Part shown: one piece after another, positions 599 to 42,100 of the stretch
Layout of the letters: every line of letters starts with the position of its first letter
Position numbering within the stretch: the first letter of the stretch is position 1
DNA from: Ignavibacteriota bacterium
GTDB taxonomy: Bacteria; Bacteroidota; Ignavibacteria; UBA10030; CAVZMI01
DNA length: 62,482 bases
Reading direction: 5' to 3'
Assembly (NCBI GenBank): GCA_963776275.1
Contig: CAVZMI010000010.1
Span: 1 to 62,482, forward strand
Position numbers and translations under genes: made by a program
The notes under the pieces: generated by a model
Told to the model about the DNA's origin: nothing
Seen by the model: the letters and a program-made list of their open reading frames with translations, nothing else
Database searches by the model: none

Positions 599-1681
599 AT
601 GAAAGACAGTCAATTTAAAATATTTGGTCCGTCGAAAGTAAAGCAGGATCACCATAGAATAGAATCCTATCTGCGGGGTGAACAAATTTATCCTACGACG
701 ATGGAAATGGACTTGACCCAGCTCTGCACACGTTCGTGTTCGGGATGTCCATACTCCGGTTCACGAAGACCGGGTCTTACATTGCAGATCCCTTTTATCG
801 ACAGGTTATTCAGTATCCTGGGTCCTCATACTCCCGGTATAGTCCTTTCCGGCGGGGAATCGACCATCGTGCCACACTTTCCGAAGGTATTGCGGACGGC
901 GAGGGAAAAGGGGTTCAGGGAAATTGCCGTCATTTCGAACGGAGCCAACATCCACAAACCCGAGGTCCAGGACGCCCTGATGGAATATGGTACTTCAATT
1001 CGAATATCGATGTATGATTGGCAGGACGGCGAATCGGTGCATTTCAAGACCACACTGCAAAAAATCCAGGGACTTCGCGACCGGATCGAAAAGGAAGGGA
1101 GTAAGCTGGAAATCGGGGCTTCGATATTGACGCAGACTGAATGGAACCATCGGTATGAACCGGTCGGGCTGCAGGCACTCTCTGCCGGAATAGACTGGTT
1201 GTACTTTCATCCATATTGCATCGATTGGGATCAGAAATACCCTGTACAGGCAAATCAGACGGGCGTCATAAAGGCAATCGAACACCTGAAAAAAATAGCA
1301 CCGAAAGATGCAAACATACAAATTCCCTACGAGCGATATGATACCAGGCCCCTCTATTTTGAGAAACTCCATGGTTCTTTCTTCCTGATCCAGATTGGTG
1401 CGAACGGCGTGAATTATGCCGGGCCCGAGTCGAAGTACGAAGAGGATTCCGAATTATTGAATCTTAACGAATATCTCGAAGATGATTTTTTATGGCATCC
1501 TCAGAGAATCGATCGGCTCAATAAAATTAACAGCGATAATTATCGCTTCCAGGGTACAAAACACAGACCGCCGGTGTTCAGCGACTATATCCAAAAGTTG
1601 ATACAGCTTGGGGACTATACCAAGGCGGTCGAATACATCGAAGATACCCCTGATCATTTCGCTTACCCCAACATTATTTAA
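599..1681 (+). CDS. Radical SAM protein
   Basis: CTRSCSGC (CxxxCxxC), LSGGES and ISNG motifs. Confidence 0.85.
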   Translation: MKDSQFKIFGPSKVKQDHHRIESYLRGEQIYPTTMEMDLTQLCTRSCSGCPYSGSRRPGLTLQIPFIDRLFSILGPHTPGIVLSGGESTIVPHFPKVLRTAREKGFREIAVISNGANIHKPEVQDALMEYGTSIRISMYDWQDGESVHFKTTLQKIQGLRDRIEKEGSKLEIGASILTQTEWNHRYEPVGLQALSAGIDWLYFHPYCIDWDQKYPVQANQTGVIKAIEHLKKIAPKDANIQIPYERYDTRPLYFEKLHGSFFLIQIGANGVNYAGPESKYEEDSELLNLNEYLEDDFLWHPQRIDRLNKINSDNYRFQGTKHRPPVFSDYIQKLIQLGDYTKAVEYIEDTPDHFAYPNII

Positions 1682-1692
1682 GCTCATGCTCT

Positions 1693-2604
1693 ATGGAAAC
1701 AAGAGCGACAGTAATCATACCGACCTTCGGGGACGCTAAATTTGCCCAATGGGCAATAAGAAGTGTCCGTGATCAGACGGTCGCCGACATCGAAATCTGC
1801 ATCATTTGTGATGGGTCGCCGGACCATATGGTCTCTTTTTTTAAATCCATGGAAAAGGAAGACCATCGTATCAAGATTTTTACATTTCCAAAATCGCCAC
1901 GAACCGGAGAACCTTACCGGGATATCGTCATTAAACAGACTACCGGGAAAAATATTTTTTACTGCAGTCATGATGACCTATGGCTTCCAGATCACGTCCA
2001 GGAGCTCGAAAATTCGCTCTTCAAATACCGGTTTACCCATTCTCTTCCGACATGTGTACTCGTGCCGGAGAATATGATCGAAGAGTTCCACTTCCCGATC
2101 AGTGTTGGTTGGTTTGATTTAACAAAGAAGAAAAATAGAAGAAAATTACTCAAGGGACATGACTATTTTCCTTTATCGTTTGGGGGACACACCAGGCAAT
2201 GCTACGCTGAGTTGGACGAAGGTTGGGTCACCACTCCCGGTAAAGATATCGCAACGGATGTTTACATGTGGCGTAAATTTGTCTCGGCAAATCCAGACCA
2301 ATGTTTAACCACGATGAAGGTGACGGCGTTGAAATTTCCGTATCCTCTAAGAAAAAACTGGTCGGAAGACAAGCGTGATGCAGAATTAAAATTTTATTAT
2401 GGGAAAATACACGATCCGGACTTCATACGGATGATCGATGGATATACGGATGGCGTGTGCCCTCCGCACTTTCAAGTAATACTGAGAAATGGATTATCGA
2501 AATGGAGGGAGTCAAAATCCAGCGTTTCAAAAGTGTGGGAAGTATATAAAGCTGATGGATTTTTCGTTTTACTAAAAAAAATAAAAGATGCCCTGAGTAT
2601 ATAA
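1693..2604 (+). CDS. Glycosyltransferase family 2
   Basis: N-terminal VIIPTF, ICDGSPD and SHDD (DxD-like) motifs. Confidence 0.85.
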   Translation: METRATVIIPTFGDAKFAQWAIRSVRDQTVADIEICIICDGSPDHMVSFFKSMEKEDHRIKIFTFPKSPRTGEPYRDIVIKQTTGKNIFYCSHDDLWLPDHVQELENSLFKYRFTHSLPTCVLVPENMIEEFHFPISVGWFDLTKKKNRRKLLKGHDYFPLSFGGHTRQCYAELDEGWVTTPGKDIATDVYMWRKFVSANPDQCLTTMKVTALKFPYPLRKNWSEDKRDAELKFYYGKIHDPDFIRMIDGYTDGVCPPHFQVILRNGLSKWRESKSSVSKVWEVYKADGFFVLLKKIKDALSI

Positions 2605-40320: not shown

Positions 40321-40430
40321 AGGTGTGATGTTCAAACGATATTCGGGAGTTTACAAAATTACGGTTTCAAATGCAATGTATGGTCGCGTTATAGTTTTAT
40401 TATCAACGATTCGGATTGGGGAAAGGCAAT

Positions 40431-40459
40431 TTGACTTTTGAGCCTTTTTGCAGTACATT
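40431..40459 (+). promoter_or_regulatory. Sigma70-type promoter for the tRNA locus
   Basis: TTGACT-17 nt-TACATT. Confidence 0.7.
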
Positions 40460-40473
40460 GAATTGATATATAC

Positions 40474-40552
40474 CGCGGGGTGGAGCCCCGACAAACAACG
40501 TCGGGATTTCGCCCTACCCAGACGGAGTCTGGGCAGGACTCAACAATTGGTA
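40474..40552 (+). pseudogene. 5' fragment of tRNA-fMet interrupted by a 58-nt double-hairpin insert
   Basis: CGCGGGGTGGAG + insert + CAATTGGTA, both flanks identical to nt 1-21 of the tRNA at 40586. Confidence 0.75.
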
Positions 40553-40585
40553 TTTAAGCTTATCAGCAAATAGAATTCTGTACAT

Positions 40586-40658
<73 letters not shown>

Positions 40659-40664
40659 CAAAAG

Positions 40665-40692
40665 AAGCCTCCCAGGTAAGGGGGGTTTTTTT
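40665..40692 (+). terminator. Terminator-like hairpin abutting the GIY-YIG start codon (repeated in each unit)
   Basis: AAGCCTCCC-AGGTAA-GGGGGGTTT stem, T7, then ATG. Confidence 0.6.
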
Positions 40693-40956
40693 ATGCCATT
40701 TTATACATATGTTCTAATCAGTGATGAAGGATATCACTACACTGGTCACACAGCTGATCTTGATCTCAGAGTCGAACGCCATTTCATGAAAACGACGCAC
40801 TATACTAAGAAGGGGAAAAACTGGCGTATTATTTATTCGAAAGAATTTTCAACAAGGGCAGAGGCCATGAAACATGAGAAGTGGCTCAAGAGTGGTGTCG
40901 GTAGAGAATGGGCGAAAGCAAACATCGCGGGGTGGAGTCCGCCGAAGGCGGAGTAG
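40693..40956 (+). CDS. Stand-alone GIY-YIG nuclease, copy 1
   Basis: YTYVL...YTG with Y6, Y16, G18, R26, H30 and E62 in the expected catalytic positions. Confidence 0.9.
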   Translation: MPFYTYVLISDEGYHYTGHTADLDLRVERHFMKTTHYTKKGKNWRIIYSKEFSTRAEAMKHEKWLKSGVGREWAKANIAGWSPPKAE

Positions 40957-41007
40957 CTCGTTGGGCTCATAACCCAAAGGTTGCAGGTTCAAGTCCTGCC
41001 CCCGCTA
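40926..41007 (+). pseudogene. tRNA-fMet copy 2 with a 15-nt hairpin in the D-loop
   Basis: CAATTG replaced by TCCGCCGAAGGCGGA (40938-40952); remainder identical to copy 1. Confidence 0.8.
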
Positions 41008-41041
41008 CAAAAGAAGCCTCCCAGGTAAGGGGGGTTTTTTT

Positions 41042-41305
41042 ATGCCATTTTATACATATGTTCTAATCAGTGATGAAGGATATCACTACACTGGTCACAC
41101 AGCTGATCTTGATCTCAGAGTCGAACGCCATTTCATGAAAACGACGCACTATACTAAGAAGGGGAAAAACTGGCGTATTATTTATTCGAAAGAATTTTCA
41201 ACAAGGGCAGAGGCCATGAAACATGAGAAGTGGCTCAAGAGTGGTGTCGGTAGAGAATGGGCGAAAGCAAACATCGCGGGGTGGAGTCCGCCGAAGGCGG
41301 AGTAG
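41042..41305 (+). CDS. GIY-YIG nuclease, copy 2
   Basis: Identical protein to copy 1. Confidence 0.9.
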   Translation: MPFYTYVLISDEGYHYTGHTADLDLRVERHFMKTTHYTKKGKNWRIIYSKEFSTRAEAMKHEKWLKSGVGREWAKANIAGWSPPKAE

Positions 41306-41356
41306 CTCGTTGGGCTCATAACCCAAAGGTTGCAGGTTCAAGTCCTGCCCCCGCTA
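41275..41356 (+). pseudogene. tRNA-fMet copy 3 with D-loop hairpin
   Basis: Identical to copy 2. Confidence 0.8.
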
Positions 41357-41390
41357 CAAAAGAAGCCTCCCAGGTAAGGGGGGTTTTTTT

Positions 41391-41654
41391 ATGCCATTTT
41401 ATACATATGTTCTAATCAGTGATGAAGGATATCACTACACTGGTCACACAGCTGATCTTGATCTCAGAGTCGAACGCCATTTCATGAAAACGACGCACTA
41501 TACTAAGAAGGGGAAAAACTGGCGTATTATTTATTCGAAAGAATTTTCAACAAGGGCAGAGGCCATGAAACATGAGAAGTGGCTCAAGAGTGGTGTCGGT
41601 AGAGAATGGGCGAAAGCAAACATCGCGGGGTGGTGTCCGCCGAAGGCGGAGTAG
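41391..41654 (+). CDS. GIY-YIG nuclease, copy 3 (S82C variant)
   Basis: Ends AGWCPPKAE. Confidence 0.9.
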   Translation: MPFYTYVLISDEGYHYTGHTADLDLRVERHFMKTTHYTKKGKNWRIIYSKEFSTRAEAMKHEKWLKSGVGREWAKANIAGWCPPKAE

Positions 41655-41705
41655 CTCGTTGGGCTCATAACCCAAAGGTTGCAGGTTCAAGTCCTGCCCC
41701 CGCTA
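41624..41705 (+). pseudogene. tRNA-fMet copy 4 with D-loop hairpin and A11T
   Basis: GGTG instead of GGAG at 41634 breaks a D-stem pair. Confidence 0.8.
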
Positions 41706-41739
41706 CAAAAGAAGCCTCCCAGGTAAGGGGGGTTTTTTT

Positions 41740-42003
41740 ATGCCATTTTATACATATGTTCTAATCAGTGATGAAGGATATCACTACACTGGTCACACAG
41801 CTGATCTTGATCTCAGAGTCGAACGCCATTTCATGAAAACGACGCACTATACTAAGAAGGGGAAAAACTGGCGTATTATTTATTCGAAAGAATTTTCAAC
41901 AAGGGCAGAGGCCATGAAACATGAGAAGTGGCTCAAGAGTGGTGTCGGTAGAGAATGGGCGAAAGCAAACATCGCGGGGTGGTGTCCGCCGAAGGCGGAG
42001 TAG
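41740..42003 (+). CDS. GIY-YIG nuclease, copy 4 (S82C variant)
   Basis: Identical to copy 3. Confidence 0.9.
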   Translation: MPFYTYVLISDEGYHYTGHTADLDLRVERHFMKTTHYTKKGKNWRIIYSKEFSTRAEAMKHEKWLKSGVGREWAKANIAGWCPPKAE

Positions 42004-42064
42004 CTCGTTGGGCTCATAACCCAAAGGTTGTATCCGCCGTAGGCGGAAAGTCCTGCCCCCGCTA
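41973..42064 (+). pseudogene. tRNA-fMet copy 5 with hairpins in both the D-loop and the T-arm
   Basis: TCCGCCGAAGGCGGA at 41985-41999 and TCCGCCGTAGGCGGA at 42033-42047 replacing GGTTC. Confidence 0.85.
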
Positions 42065-42070
42065 CAAACA

Positions 42071-42100
42071 GCCTCCTTGTATAGGAGGCCTTTTTATTTT
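42071..42100 (+). terminator. Intrinsic terminator closing the array
   Basis: GCCTCCT/AGGAGGC stem followed by CTTTTTATTTT. Confidence 0.8.

Follow-up and report, generated by a model that had tools for sequence, protein, structure and literature searches.

The closest described system involves SegB, a GIY-YIG nuclease of phages T4 and T6 which, according to the available portion of its published description, cuts inside tRNA genes, including at a T-loop-like motif (PMC13096335). The same portion of that report ascribes tandem amplification of a segment carrying a tRNA gene plus segB to the nuclease and to recombination (PMC13096335). UPF0213 proteins of the 1zg2/1ywl type are placed, in the accessible part of a second report, in a bacterial Slx1-like cluster, which is the minimal form of the GIY-YIG domain and is related to the structure-specific nuclease Slx1 (PMC1564403). 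One Slx1-like fusion to a TrmH-like tRNA D-loop methylase is described in that part of the text, where no other link to tRNA and no link to tRNA genes is mentioned (PMC1564403). Here, we examined a partial copy of the initiator-tRNA gene interrupted by a module of two hairpins, which is apparently a member of a widespread, seemingly undescribed family of nuclease-linked cassettes nesting inside tRNA genes. A search of the full-text literature, outside which most subscription journals lie, turned up accounts of neither tRNA-nested minimal GIY-YIG cassettes nor tRNA stumps plugged by hairpins.

The window (the whole stretch of DNA analyzed, 62,482 nt) is contig C10 of a 3.7-Mb genome assembled in 38 contigs, designated G000. 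The earlier note had reported that nt 1 to 12 and nt 13 to 21 of a tRNA are split at 40474 to 40552 by 58 nt with two hairpins, and these coordinates proved exact. The stump starts 112 nt upstream of the intact tRNA-fMet gene. The break follows the word GGAG and, as also claimed, falls where a 15-mer sits in pseudo-tRNA copies 2 to 5 farther downstream, although copies 4 and 5 read GGTG. The junction is also readable as 13/14 because position 40486 is a C, which gives a 13-nt match. The composite of 12-mer, 50 to 70 nt and 9-mer had a single occurrence in the window and none in 100 dinucleotide shuffles, and the 12-mer of the stump had four copies in the 3.7-Mb genome, every one within the tRNA-fMet locus.

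Table. Coordinates of the features at the tRNA-fMet locus of the window
Feature	Position	Strand	Basis or remark
Promoter-like TTGACT-N17-TACATT	40431-40459	+	Consensus scan; 14 nt upstream of stump
tRNA-fMet stump (nt 1-12)	40474-40485	+	Exact 12-mer match to gene at 40586-40659
58-nt two-hairpin module (type B)	40486-40543	+	Folds; architecture recurring in relatives
Hairpin A of type B	40487-40505		A-rich 7-nt loop
Linker ATTTCG of type B	40506-40511		
Hairpin B of type B	40513-40537		
End CTCAA of type B	40539-40543		
Copy of tRNA-fMet nt 13-21	40544-40552	+	Sequence identity; TTGGTA at 40547-40552 is also a -35-like hexamer
Spacer with diverged second leader copy, stopping just 5' of the intact tRNA	40553-40585	+	
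Intact initiator tRNA (anticodon CAT), the genome's only one	40586-40659	+	ARAGORN; Rfam tRNA, 66.5 bits
Four 349-bp tandem units	40660-42008	+	TRF period 349, 4.1 copies, 99%
87-aa GIY-YIG ORFs	40693-40956, 41042-41305, 41391-41654, 41740-42003	+	ORF list; Pfam PF01541
15-nt hairpin plug replacing D-loop nt 13-18, pseudo-tRNA copy 2	40938-40952	+	
Further 15-nt plugs	41287-41301, 41636-41650, 41985-41999	+	
Terminal pseudo-tRNA-fMet	41973-42066	+	D-loop plug plus second hairpin at 42031-42048 for 5' half of T arm
Intrinsic-terminator-like hairpin and T-run	42071-42099	+	Kept in congener G001; presumed original tRNA-gene terminator

Initiator tRNAs are marked by a mismatched first pair and three G:C pairs in the anticodon stem. 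Three CAT tRNAs were present in G000 and only the intact gene of the window had this look, the remaining two having sequences other than tRNA-fMet. This gene was also the sole ARAGORN call in the window; the 79-nt stump feature was not called as a tRNA, and Rfam detected neither a tRNA (RF00005) nor any other family at 40474 to 40552 with E values up to 10. Other sub-threshold Rfam matches in the region (leaders and sRNAs) were dismissed as chance. Between the stump and the intact gene, no integrase was found and the ORFs were chance frames only. Both hairpins were present in the centroid DNA fold of the region from 40474 to 40552, with arms at 40487-40492 and 40500-40505 for hairpin A and at 40513-40523 and 40527-40537, with one A.C mismatch, for hairpin B. 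The stability of the window module as a single sequence was modest (z of -1.76 versus dinucleotide shuffles, 8 of 200 of which were equally stable). We give an even chance to the interpretation that the 79-nt feature is the promoter-proximal stump of an initiator-tRNA gene, with a cassette copied in at the D-loop after nt 12.

The position of the break was examined in 277 genomes of the order by use of an unbiased pattern, consisting of tRNA-fMet nt 2 to 8 followed by 75 to 105 nt and then an intact 5' end. This pattern gave 34 matches in 32 genomes, and none were obtained with the reversed-pattern control. Breaks after nt 12 accounted for 28 of the 34 fragments, a count that overstates independence because the genomes are kin; three fragments broke after nt 9, two in the anticodon loop and one after nt 8, the last probably by chance. 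Five kinds of insert were found in the 28 breaks at nt 12, namely type A (10 cases), type B (15 cases) and three others with one case each. In type A, a hairpin starting with TCC and ending with GGA replaces nt 13 to 18 and is followed by nt 19 to 41 and a conserved GAGAGnAAC word, and these stumps retain the entire anticodon arm. The diversity of insert kinds is a better argument for a fixed junction than are the counts.

Searches for the junction word itself gave a similar picture within the order: GGAG followed by YCC was detected in 51 of the 277 genomes, with 65 matches versus 7 for the reversed pattern, and inspection of all 65 matches identified 39 genomes as tRNA-fMet related and 12 as unrelated. 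A scan of the whole collection for GGAG plus TCC, which shows presence in other FCB phyla and gives no frequency, detected type A stumps in Bacteroidota and Neomarinimicrobiota MAGs, with at least eight real loci among the 120 stretches listed; the non-type-A remainder of those listed were chance matches in GC-rich genomes. The earlier note had called the site a targeted hotspot and had proposed a survey of tRNA-fMet loci in related genomes. In that survey, insertions after nt 12 recurred and were not randomly placed, so that the proposal stands in substance, with one boundary common to five insert kinds and no control matches. Its argument from two independent events oversimplifies, as both inserts are conserved cassette types that recur in other families and did not arise de novo in G000.

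Type B modules were detected in 18 genomes of four families (f1, 2 genomes; f7, 2; f8, 7; f9, 7). All read, in order, GGAG, hairpin A (7-nt, A-rich loop), ATTTCG or a linker differing from it by one base, hairpin B, the end CTCAA (or CTCGA), CAATTGG from the D-loop, a spacer whose last part is a copy of the leader, and the intact tRNA. Loops and linkers were conserved while stems co-varied. Each type B sequence folded as two hairpins, with z values of -2.3 to -7.0 against mononucleotide shuffles. Stem pairing was counted from the hairpin foot in 14 genomes, the MAFFT register being unreliable for hairpin A. Of 84 foot-anchored cells, 79 were paired for hairpin B, whose six positions showed 18 pair types, and 22 to 27 were paired when the partner was slid; for hairpin A the figures were 74 of 84 and 33 to 53. 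RNAalifold analysis of 13 sequences indicated compensatory changes in six of seven hairpin B pairs. Co-variation of stems in a DNA palindrome can come from template-switch correction without selection. A further RNAalifold helix, formed by GGAG+YCC and GGR+UUUC, was discarded as evidence because its pairs never vary.

Nested or expanded versions of type B were present in G185 and G161, and the G185 nested copy differs in its left flank and in the word that it follows. Leader copies were identical in three genomes (G010, G146 and G089) and diverged in G000; such identity is as expected from local tandem duplication and runs counter to import. The type B stump and the nuclease cassette occurred together in G000, G001 and G185, and no GIY-YIG gene was near 8 of the 11 type B loci for which 700 nt or more could be read downstream.

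The age of the feature was apparent from a congener, G001, which shares the stump and an identical 58-nt insert and matches the query at 94% over the first 535 nt (window positions 40400 to 40934). No differences were detected in the 67 nt of insert plus nt 13 to 21 (0/58 in the insert), whereas 6 of the 33 nt of the spacer next to it differed. The 12 nt of tRNA sequence in the stump had one difference (G to A at 40483), and the 174 nt upstream had six, five of them within the last 14 nt. The comparison of 0/67 with 6/33 therefore indicated that the module is constrained or recently exchanged and is not freely decaying neutral debris. The label "relic" in the earlier note thus undersells the module and nt 13 to 21. 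A public peat metagenome contig covers 40200 to 40612 with G001-type differences, placing the stump in a G001-like strain, and another metagenome contig has a single-unit form; a G000-like piece with the 15-mer was also found. The stump is therefore no assembly artefact, as it is carried by G001 and by an independent metagenome contig, and it is older than the species.

Filled and empty alleles were then compared. In genus g56, the site TTGACT-N17-TATATT and a short leader abut the intact tRNA in four empty genomes (G104, G107, G108 and G112). In G114, a type B genome of the same genus, a site of this kind abuts the stump instead, and the extra DNA consists of the module, nt 13 onwards, the spacer with leader, and nt 1 to 12. 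Within the family of the window itself, G002 is empty relative to G000, and a promoter-like TTGACT-N17-TATATT site abuts its intact tRNA. These alleles support a location of the stump at the original promoter. The suggestion that this copy lies nearest the promoter and may be the original gene accordingly fits the data, with the promoter abutting the stump in G000 and G114 but the tRNA in empty relatives. A consensus scan for promoters yielded 3 sites versus 2.3 expected, which is not above chance on its own.

Two further genomes, G105 and G107, were closely similar in both flanks and shared promoter and terminator. In G105, the place of the single tRNA of G107 is taken by the tRNA, a terminator, a GIY-YIG gene and a plugged pseudo-tRNA, with the original terminator after the pseudo-copy. 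Because of this arrangement, the hairpin and T-run at 42071 to 42099 were read, by analogy, as the presumed original terminator of the tRNA-fMet gene. The genus of G105, G107 and G114 also contains alleles of type A (G110) and, in partial form, of type B (G103), and the occurrence of several insert types in one genus points to recent, repeated events. As judged from sequence comparison, the allele pattern is that of discrete cassettes being gained or lost repeatedly and in recent times. A T at nt 27 of the G110 stump, where the host has C, was rejected as proof of import because it is a single transition.

On the 3' side of the intact tRNA, each 349-bp unit contains a terminator-like hairpin with a T-run, an 87-aa GIY-YIG ORF and the 5' part of a pseudo-tRNA-fMet. 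The last 11 codons of the ORF cross tRNA nt 1 to 12 and the 15-nt hairpin, and the stop codon lies in the D-stem. Four nuclease units were present at tRNA-fMet in G000, a number given as assembled since the metagenome runs hold contigs only, and one was present in G001. The terminal pseudo-tRNA of G000 scored 20.9 bits with Rfam, below threshold. Its G001 counterpart contains four hairpins, located after nt 9, in the D-loop (a different hairpin, of 27 nt), after nt 26, and in the T arm, where the plug is as in G000. A T-stem pair differs between G000 and G001 yet matches between the intact copy and the pseudo-copy inside each genome, a compensatory change; intact and pseudo-copies therefore evolve in concert.

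The 87-aa ORF matched PF01541 over residues 3 to 67 (1.4e-12; 48.2 bits versus a cutoff of 22.6). Its C-terminal tail is encoded by tRNA sequence, and the 87 aa hold no separate DNA-binding domain. Searches of PHROG detected 0 families and NCBIfam gave no match, and sequence kinship with phage Seg proteins was not found. The best solved relatives were the UPF0213 structures PDB 1zg2 (E value of 1.2e-6) and 1ywl (5.2e-5). Sequence-specific homing by this protein alone would not be expected because it is a bare catalytic domain without a DNA-binding part.

A GIY-YIG profile built from cores trimmed of translated tRNA sequence was utilized to survey the neighbors of tRNA-fMet. GIY-YIG ORFs adjoin this gene in 12 genomes; ten of them have the terminal sequence NIAGWSPPxAE, coded by tRNA nt -2 to 12 and the 15-mer. 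The 15-mer, with one variable loop base, also follows GIY-YIG genes at tRNA-fMet in other families. The earlier note had counted the 15-mer as one of two independent events; it is instead the conserved 3' end of the GIY-YIG cassette and no separate insertion. PF01541 matches were found in 273 of the 277 genomes. A stump was present in 1 of 32 genomes with no more than one PF01541 match versus 43 of 245 others, a weak association among genomes that are not phylogenetically independent. The single case, G193, has a type B stump and only one PF01541 match in a genome that is 98% complete.

The link to tRNA genes extended beyond tRNA-fMet in G000. Nine small GIY-YIG loci were present besides UvrC, and five or six of the nine adjoin tRNA genes (Ser, two loci; Pro, two; Val; fMet) with plugged pseudo-tRNAs. 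Same-strand self-fragments of at least 12 nt were found within 800 nt of 18 of the 46 tRNA genes, versus 0 to 2 of 46 in 20 random-place controls; this survey used 12-nt words with other annotated tRNAs masked. A survey with 9-nt words was no better than its control (29/46 versus 13/46). Fragment ends clustered at nt 12 to 20, 26 to 29, 35 to 41, 45 to 49 and 51 to 59, which are loops and helix junctions. The breaks thus fall in the D-loop, anticodon, variable and T-loop regions of G000 tRNAs and are not confined to fMet or to nt 12.

Our preferred explanation, which we believe about as readily as we doubt it, is that the stump and its module are the scar and the riding module of tRNA-nesting nuclease cassettes, for which we infer cutting and homing. 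A cassette of four parts (the two-hairpin module, nt 13 to 21, the spacer with a second leader, and fresh nt 1 to 12) would have been copied into the gene. With fresh nt 1 to 12 brought by the cassette, the old 5' end would have been left as a dead stump and the intact tRNA rebuilt just downstream of it. A second cassette of the system, made up of the terminator-like hairpin and the nuclease gene, would have entered at this junction too, on its 3' side, and been amplified to four units. The tiny nuclease may nick or cut tRNA-gene DNA at loop-coding positions, recognizing either sequence or, as Slx1-type enzymes do, hairpin or cloverleaf DNA. Repair of the break by copying of the cassette-bearing copy (homing) would let the cassette supply the missing part of the tRNA, and one copy would stay intact. 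The hairpin plug would both protect the dead copy from recutting and stop its tRNA activity. Modules that lack an ORF, such as the 58-nt insert, could ride in trans on nucleases encoded elsewhere, and repeated breaks might drive tandem amplification, by analogy with phage SegB. Counter to homing, the intact tRNA-fMet copy keeps the presumed target, and self-cutting would have to be avoided.

An unlikely, but not negligible, alternative is that slippage or unequal crossing-over duplicated the tRNA-fMet 5' region in tandem and that the dead copy was then invaded by mobile palindromes of the REP type, through template switching or the action of Y1 (RAYT/IS200-type) transposases, with the GIY-YIG genes as bystanders. 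A pool of such palindromes is present in G000, where the 13-nt core of the 15-mer occurs in 28 copies, partly in 34-bp REP-like arrays, and hairpin A has five near-copies within dispersed REP-like units; hairpin B of G185 is the core of a G000 REP-like unit, with similar flanks. The genome also has nine Y1_Tnp matches, none of them on the contig of the window and several flanked by GC-rich hairpins, and the identical leader copies of three genomes and the nested modules of G185 and G161 would suit this explanation. However, the hairpins bordering the Y1 genes differ in sequence from the plugs; a single CCGCC-type copy lies close to one of these genes. A RAYT origin of the plugs was rejected because of this difference. 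In a loose pattern search the complete two-hairpin module was single-copy in G000, at tRNA-fMet only, other matches having no hairpins, and it is hence not dispersed as the palindromes are. Mobile palindromes would also leave three things to be accounted for: a constant nt-12 junction across five insert kinds, the association of the 15-mer with the GIY-YIG tail across families, and the presence or absence of the nuclease cassette as a whole unit in G105 versus G107. An IS200/IS605-type MITE was likewise rejected, as there is one copy in G000 and the nested G185 copy follows a different word.

The constraint on the module between G000 and G001, the compensatory changes in its stems across 14 genomes, whose loops and linkers are conserved, and the anticodon arm retained in type A stumps would all be expected if the host made use of it. 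The module and D-loop piece might then be kept as an internal promoter, as an insulator or stabilizer of the precursor, or as a decoy RNA that serves as bait for factors or toxins recognizing initiator tRNA. A second promoter-like site from the consensus scan, TTGGTA-N18-TAGAAT at 40547 to 40576, has its -35 box within the retained D-loop piece, and type B loci had -10-like hexamers 16 to 19 nt past TTGGNN with a mean score of 3.56 versus 2.70 in shuffles (0 of 500 shuffles as high). The retained D-loop piece is thus a weak, tentative candidate for a -35 box. A host function is nevertheless improbable, somewhat more so than mobile palindromes, for the unbiased pattern is limited to 32 of 277 genomes, close congeners have empty sites and one genus holds three different insert types. 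Decay of the tRNA part in G001 also argues against it, as do tandem multiplication and nesting, which look selfish; moreover, the number of promoter sites was near expectation, Rfam gave no match and the invariant helix between GGAG and the linker is uninformative. A partial tRNA copy beside an intact gene is generally known as the classic mark of tRNA-integrated islands. A remnant of the attachment site of an integrase-borne island would, however, be a 3' fragment rather than a 5' one, and the insert here is about 100 nt with no integrase between the copies. Such a remnant is extremely improbable, as is a chance match or an assembly error, given the shuffles and the recurrence of the stump in G001 and an independent contig.

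A broader version of the cassette explanation, which we regard as possible though rather doubtful in all its details, is that tiny Slx1-like GIY-YIG nucleases and hairpin modules make up a new class of selfish elements guided by structure. Hairpins or cloverleaves of DNA, extruded from tRNA genes, would be recognized by the nuclease and cleaved at the loop junctions; partial tRNA duplications would spread through repair, and the co-varying hairpin would mark and immunize the dead copy. The module at 40486 to 40543 would be a non-autonomous rider that may supply a promoter for the rebuilt tRNA. Such elements would reshape a good part of the tRNA gene set, 18 of 46 loci in this genome, and reach across the FCB group. 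If this is correct, invasion and rebuilding by minimal nuclease cassettes would be routine for essential single-copy tRNA genes of free-living bacteria, and the large, function-less UPF0213/Slx1-like GIY-YIG family would gain a concrete role and a testable target. Frequent breaks of MAG contigs at tRNA loci and the many pseudo-tRNAs met by tRNA finders would be explained. The principle of SegB, nuclease-driven transfer and amplification of a tRNA locus, would extend from phages to chromosomes, and, with the hairpin plug at fixed loop positions, homing-type elements would have a novel means of disarming a target that involves neither intron nor intein. Even without the selfish model, a 58-nt co-varying module at one nucleotide of the initiator tRNA in four families needs explaining.

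The locus was also compared with integrase attachment sites, PATE/MITE elements and REP/REPIN sequences. As with attL/attR, an intact tRNA gene survives next to inserted DNA that has a partial copy beside it, but here a 5' fragment accompanies an insert of about 100 nt, whereas 3' fragments and kb-sized islands with an integrase are found there. PATE/MITE elements derived from IS200/IS605 share a hairpin near each end, insertion after a fixed word (GGAG), a right end in TCAA and no obvious target duplication; unlike them, the module is not multicopy and always occurs with duplicated tRNA and leader sequence. The likeness to REP/BIME (REPIN)-RAYT systems lies in the short GC-rich palindromes dispersed and arrayed in G000, with cores shared with the plugs, and in the presence of Y1 genes. 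In contrast to REP/REPIN, the module is single-copy and specific to tRNA-fMet, has a fixed in-gene junction and a partial gene duplication, and is linked to a GIY-YIG rather than a Y1 gene.

The 87-aa protein shares its size, its lack of an extra domain and its sequence similarity with UPF0213/Slx1-like proteins of about 90 to 110 aa. As far as the available part of the SegB description goes, the GIY-YIG gene set among tRNA genes resembles that free-standing homing endonuclease of a tRNA gene cluster, and the array of four 349-bp units resembles an amplified segment of tRNA plus nuclease. As for SegB, the presence of the cassette varies between close relatives, here with G105 filled and G107 empty. 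SegB is said to be longer and to have a DNA-binding part. The protein described here, by contrast, is a bare catalytic domain of the Slx1-like/UPF0213 kind without a PHROG match, and it is found on a bacterial chromosome rather than in a phage. Its ORF ends in a pseudo-tRNA, hairpin plugs lie at fixed loop positions, and ORF-less two-hairpin modules accompany the system, all of which are unlike SegB. The target also differs in that it is an essential, single-copy initiator tRNA.

Hairpins and repeats of related kinds were detected at several other tRNA loci of the source genome, G000, and at tRNA-fMet loci of its relatives.

Coordinates of tRNA-associated repeats and of one transposase match (L055 and L002, tRNA-fMet locus stretches of relatives, have their own numbering)
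Contig or stretch	Positions	Strand	Feature
G000:C5	58850-59650		tRNA-Thr(cgt), stump and pseudo-tRNA units
G000:C23	437400-437990		tRNA-Gly(tcc), tandem repeats, tRNA-Thr(ggt)
G000:C23	121300-121850		arrays downstream of tRNA-Val(cac)
G000:C37	15260-15560		tRNA-Ser(cga), repeats, GIY-YIG ORF
G000:C15	154660-155140 (region)	minus	elongator tRNA-Met pseudo-copy
L055 (G213:C116)	815-1140		tandem units
L002 (G001:C8)	2027-2205		GIY-YIG ORF running through three additional hairpins
G000:C23	249303-249548		Y1 transposase match

Upstream of tRNA-Thr(cgt), a 5' stump consists of nt 7-26 followed by a hairpin, and 3' of the gene pseudo-tRNA-Thr is present as two 252-bp units, in which hairpins occupy sites in three regions: anticodon arm, T loop and 3' strand of the acceptor. 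Three 148-bp tandem repeats separate tRNA-Gly(tcc) from tRNA-Thr(ggt); every repeat terminates in a 3' part of tRNA-Gly, with a CCGCC-type hairpin in place of the T arm. The CCGCC hairpin core of the 15-mer, the D-loop plug of the pseudo-tRNA-fMet copies, was also found within the outer palindrome of a 34-bp REP-like unit, arrays of which alternate with ∼190-bp repeats at the tRNA-Val locus. tRNA-Ser(cga) is followed immediately by approximately four tandem repeats of ∼95 bp, after which comes a small GIY-YIG ORF; the stop of this ORF falls within a hairpin adjoining a 3' fragment of tRNA-Ser. The pseudo-copy upstream of elongator tRNA-Met is in five pieces (nt 1-13, 13-29, 27-41, 46-54 and 58-72), and hence it too is interrupted after approximately nt 13.

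Among the relatives, L055, from another genome of the order, carries three 108-bp units in tandem downstream of a stump with the two-hairpin module (type B); these units resemble tRNA-fMet, with a hairpin replacing the 3' half of the anticodon loop and the variable region. Hairpin content differed greatly between G000 and its congener G001, which share 94% identity at the tRNA-fMet locus. The GIY-YIG ORF of the congener reads through the three additional hairpins and consequently has a C-terminal tail entirely unlike the conserved NIAGWSPPxAE. In many relatives the contig ended at the tRNA-fMet locus or no more than a few hundred bases away (L008, L009, L024, L030, L031, L046, L051 and L065, among others), which suggests that repeats at this locus commonly break short-read assemblies.

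Matches to Y1 transposases (PF01797) were detected at nine places in G000, the tabulated one and eight others. A 15-nt GC palindrome, present in four copies, flanked one of the nine, an arrangement similar to that of a RAYT and its REPs.
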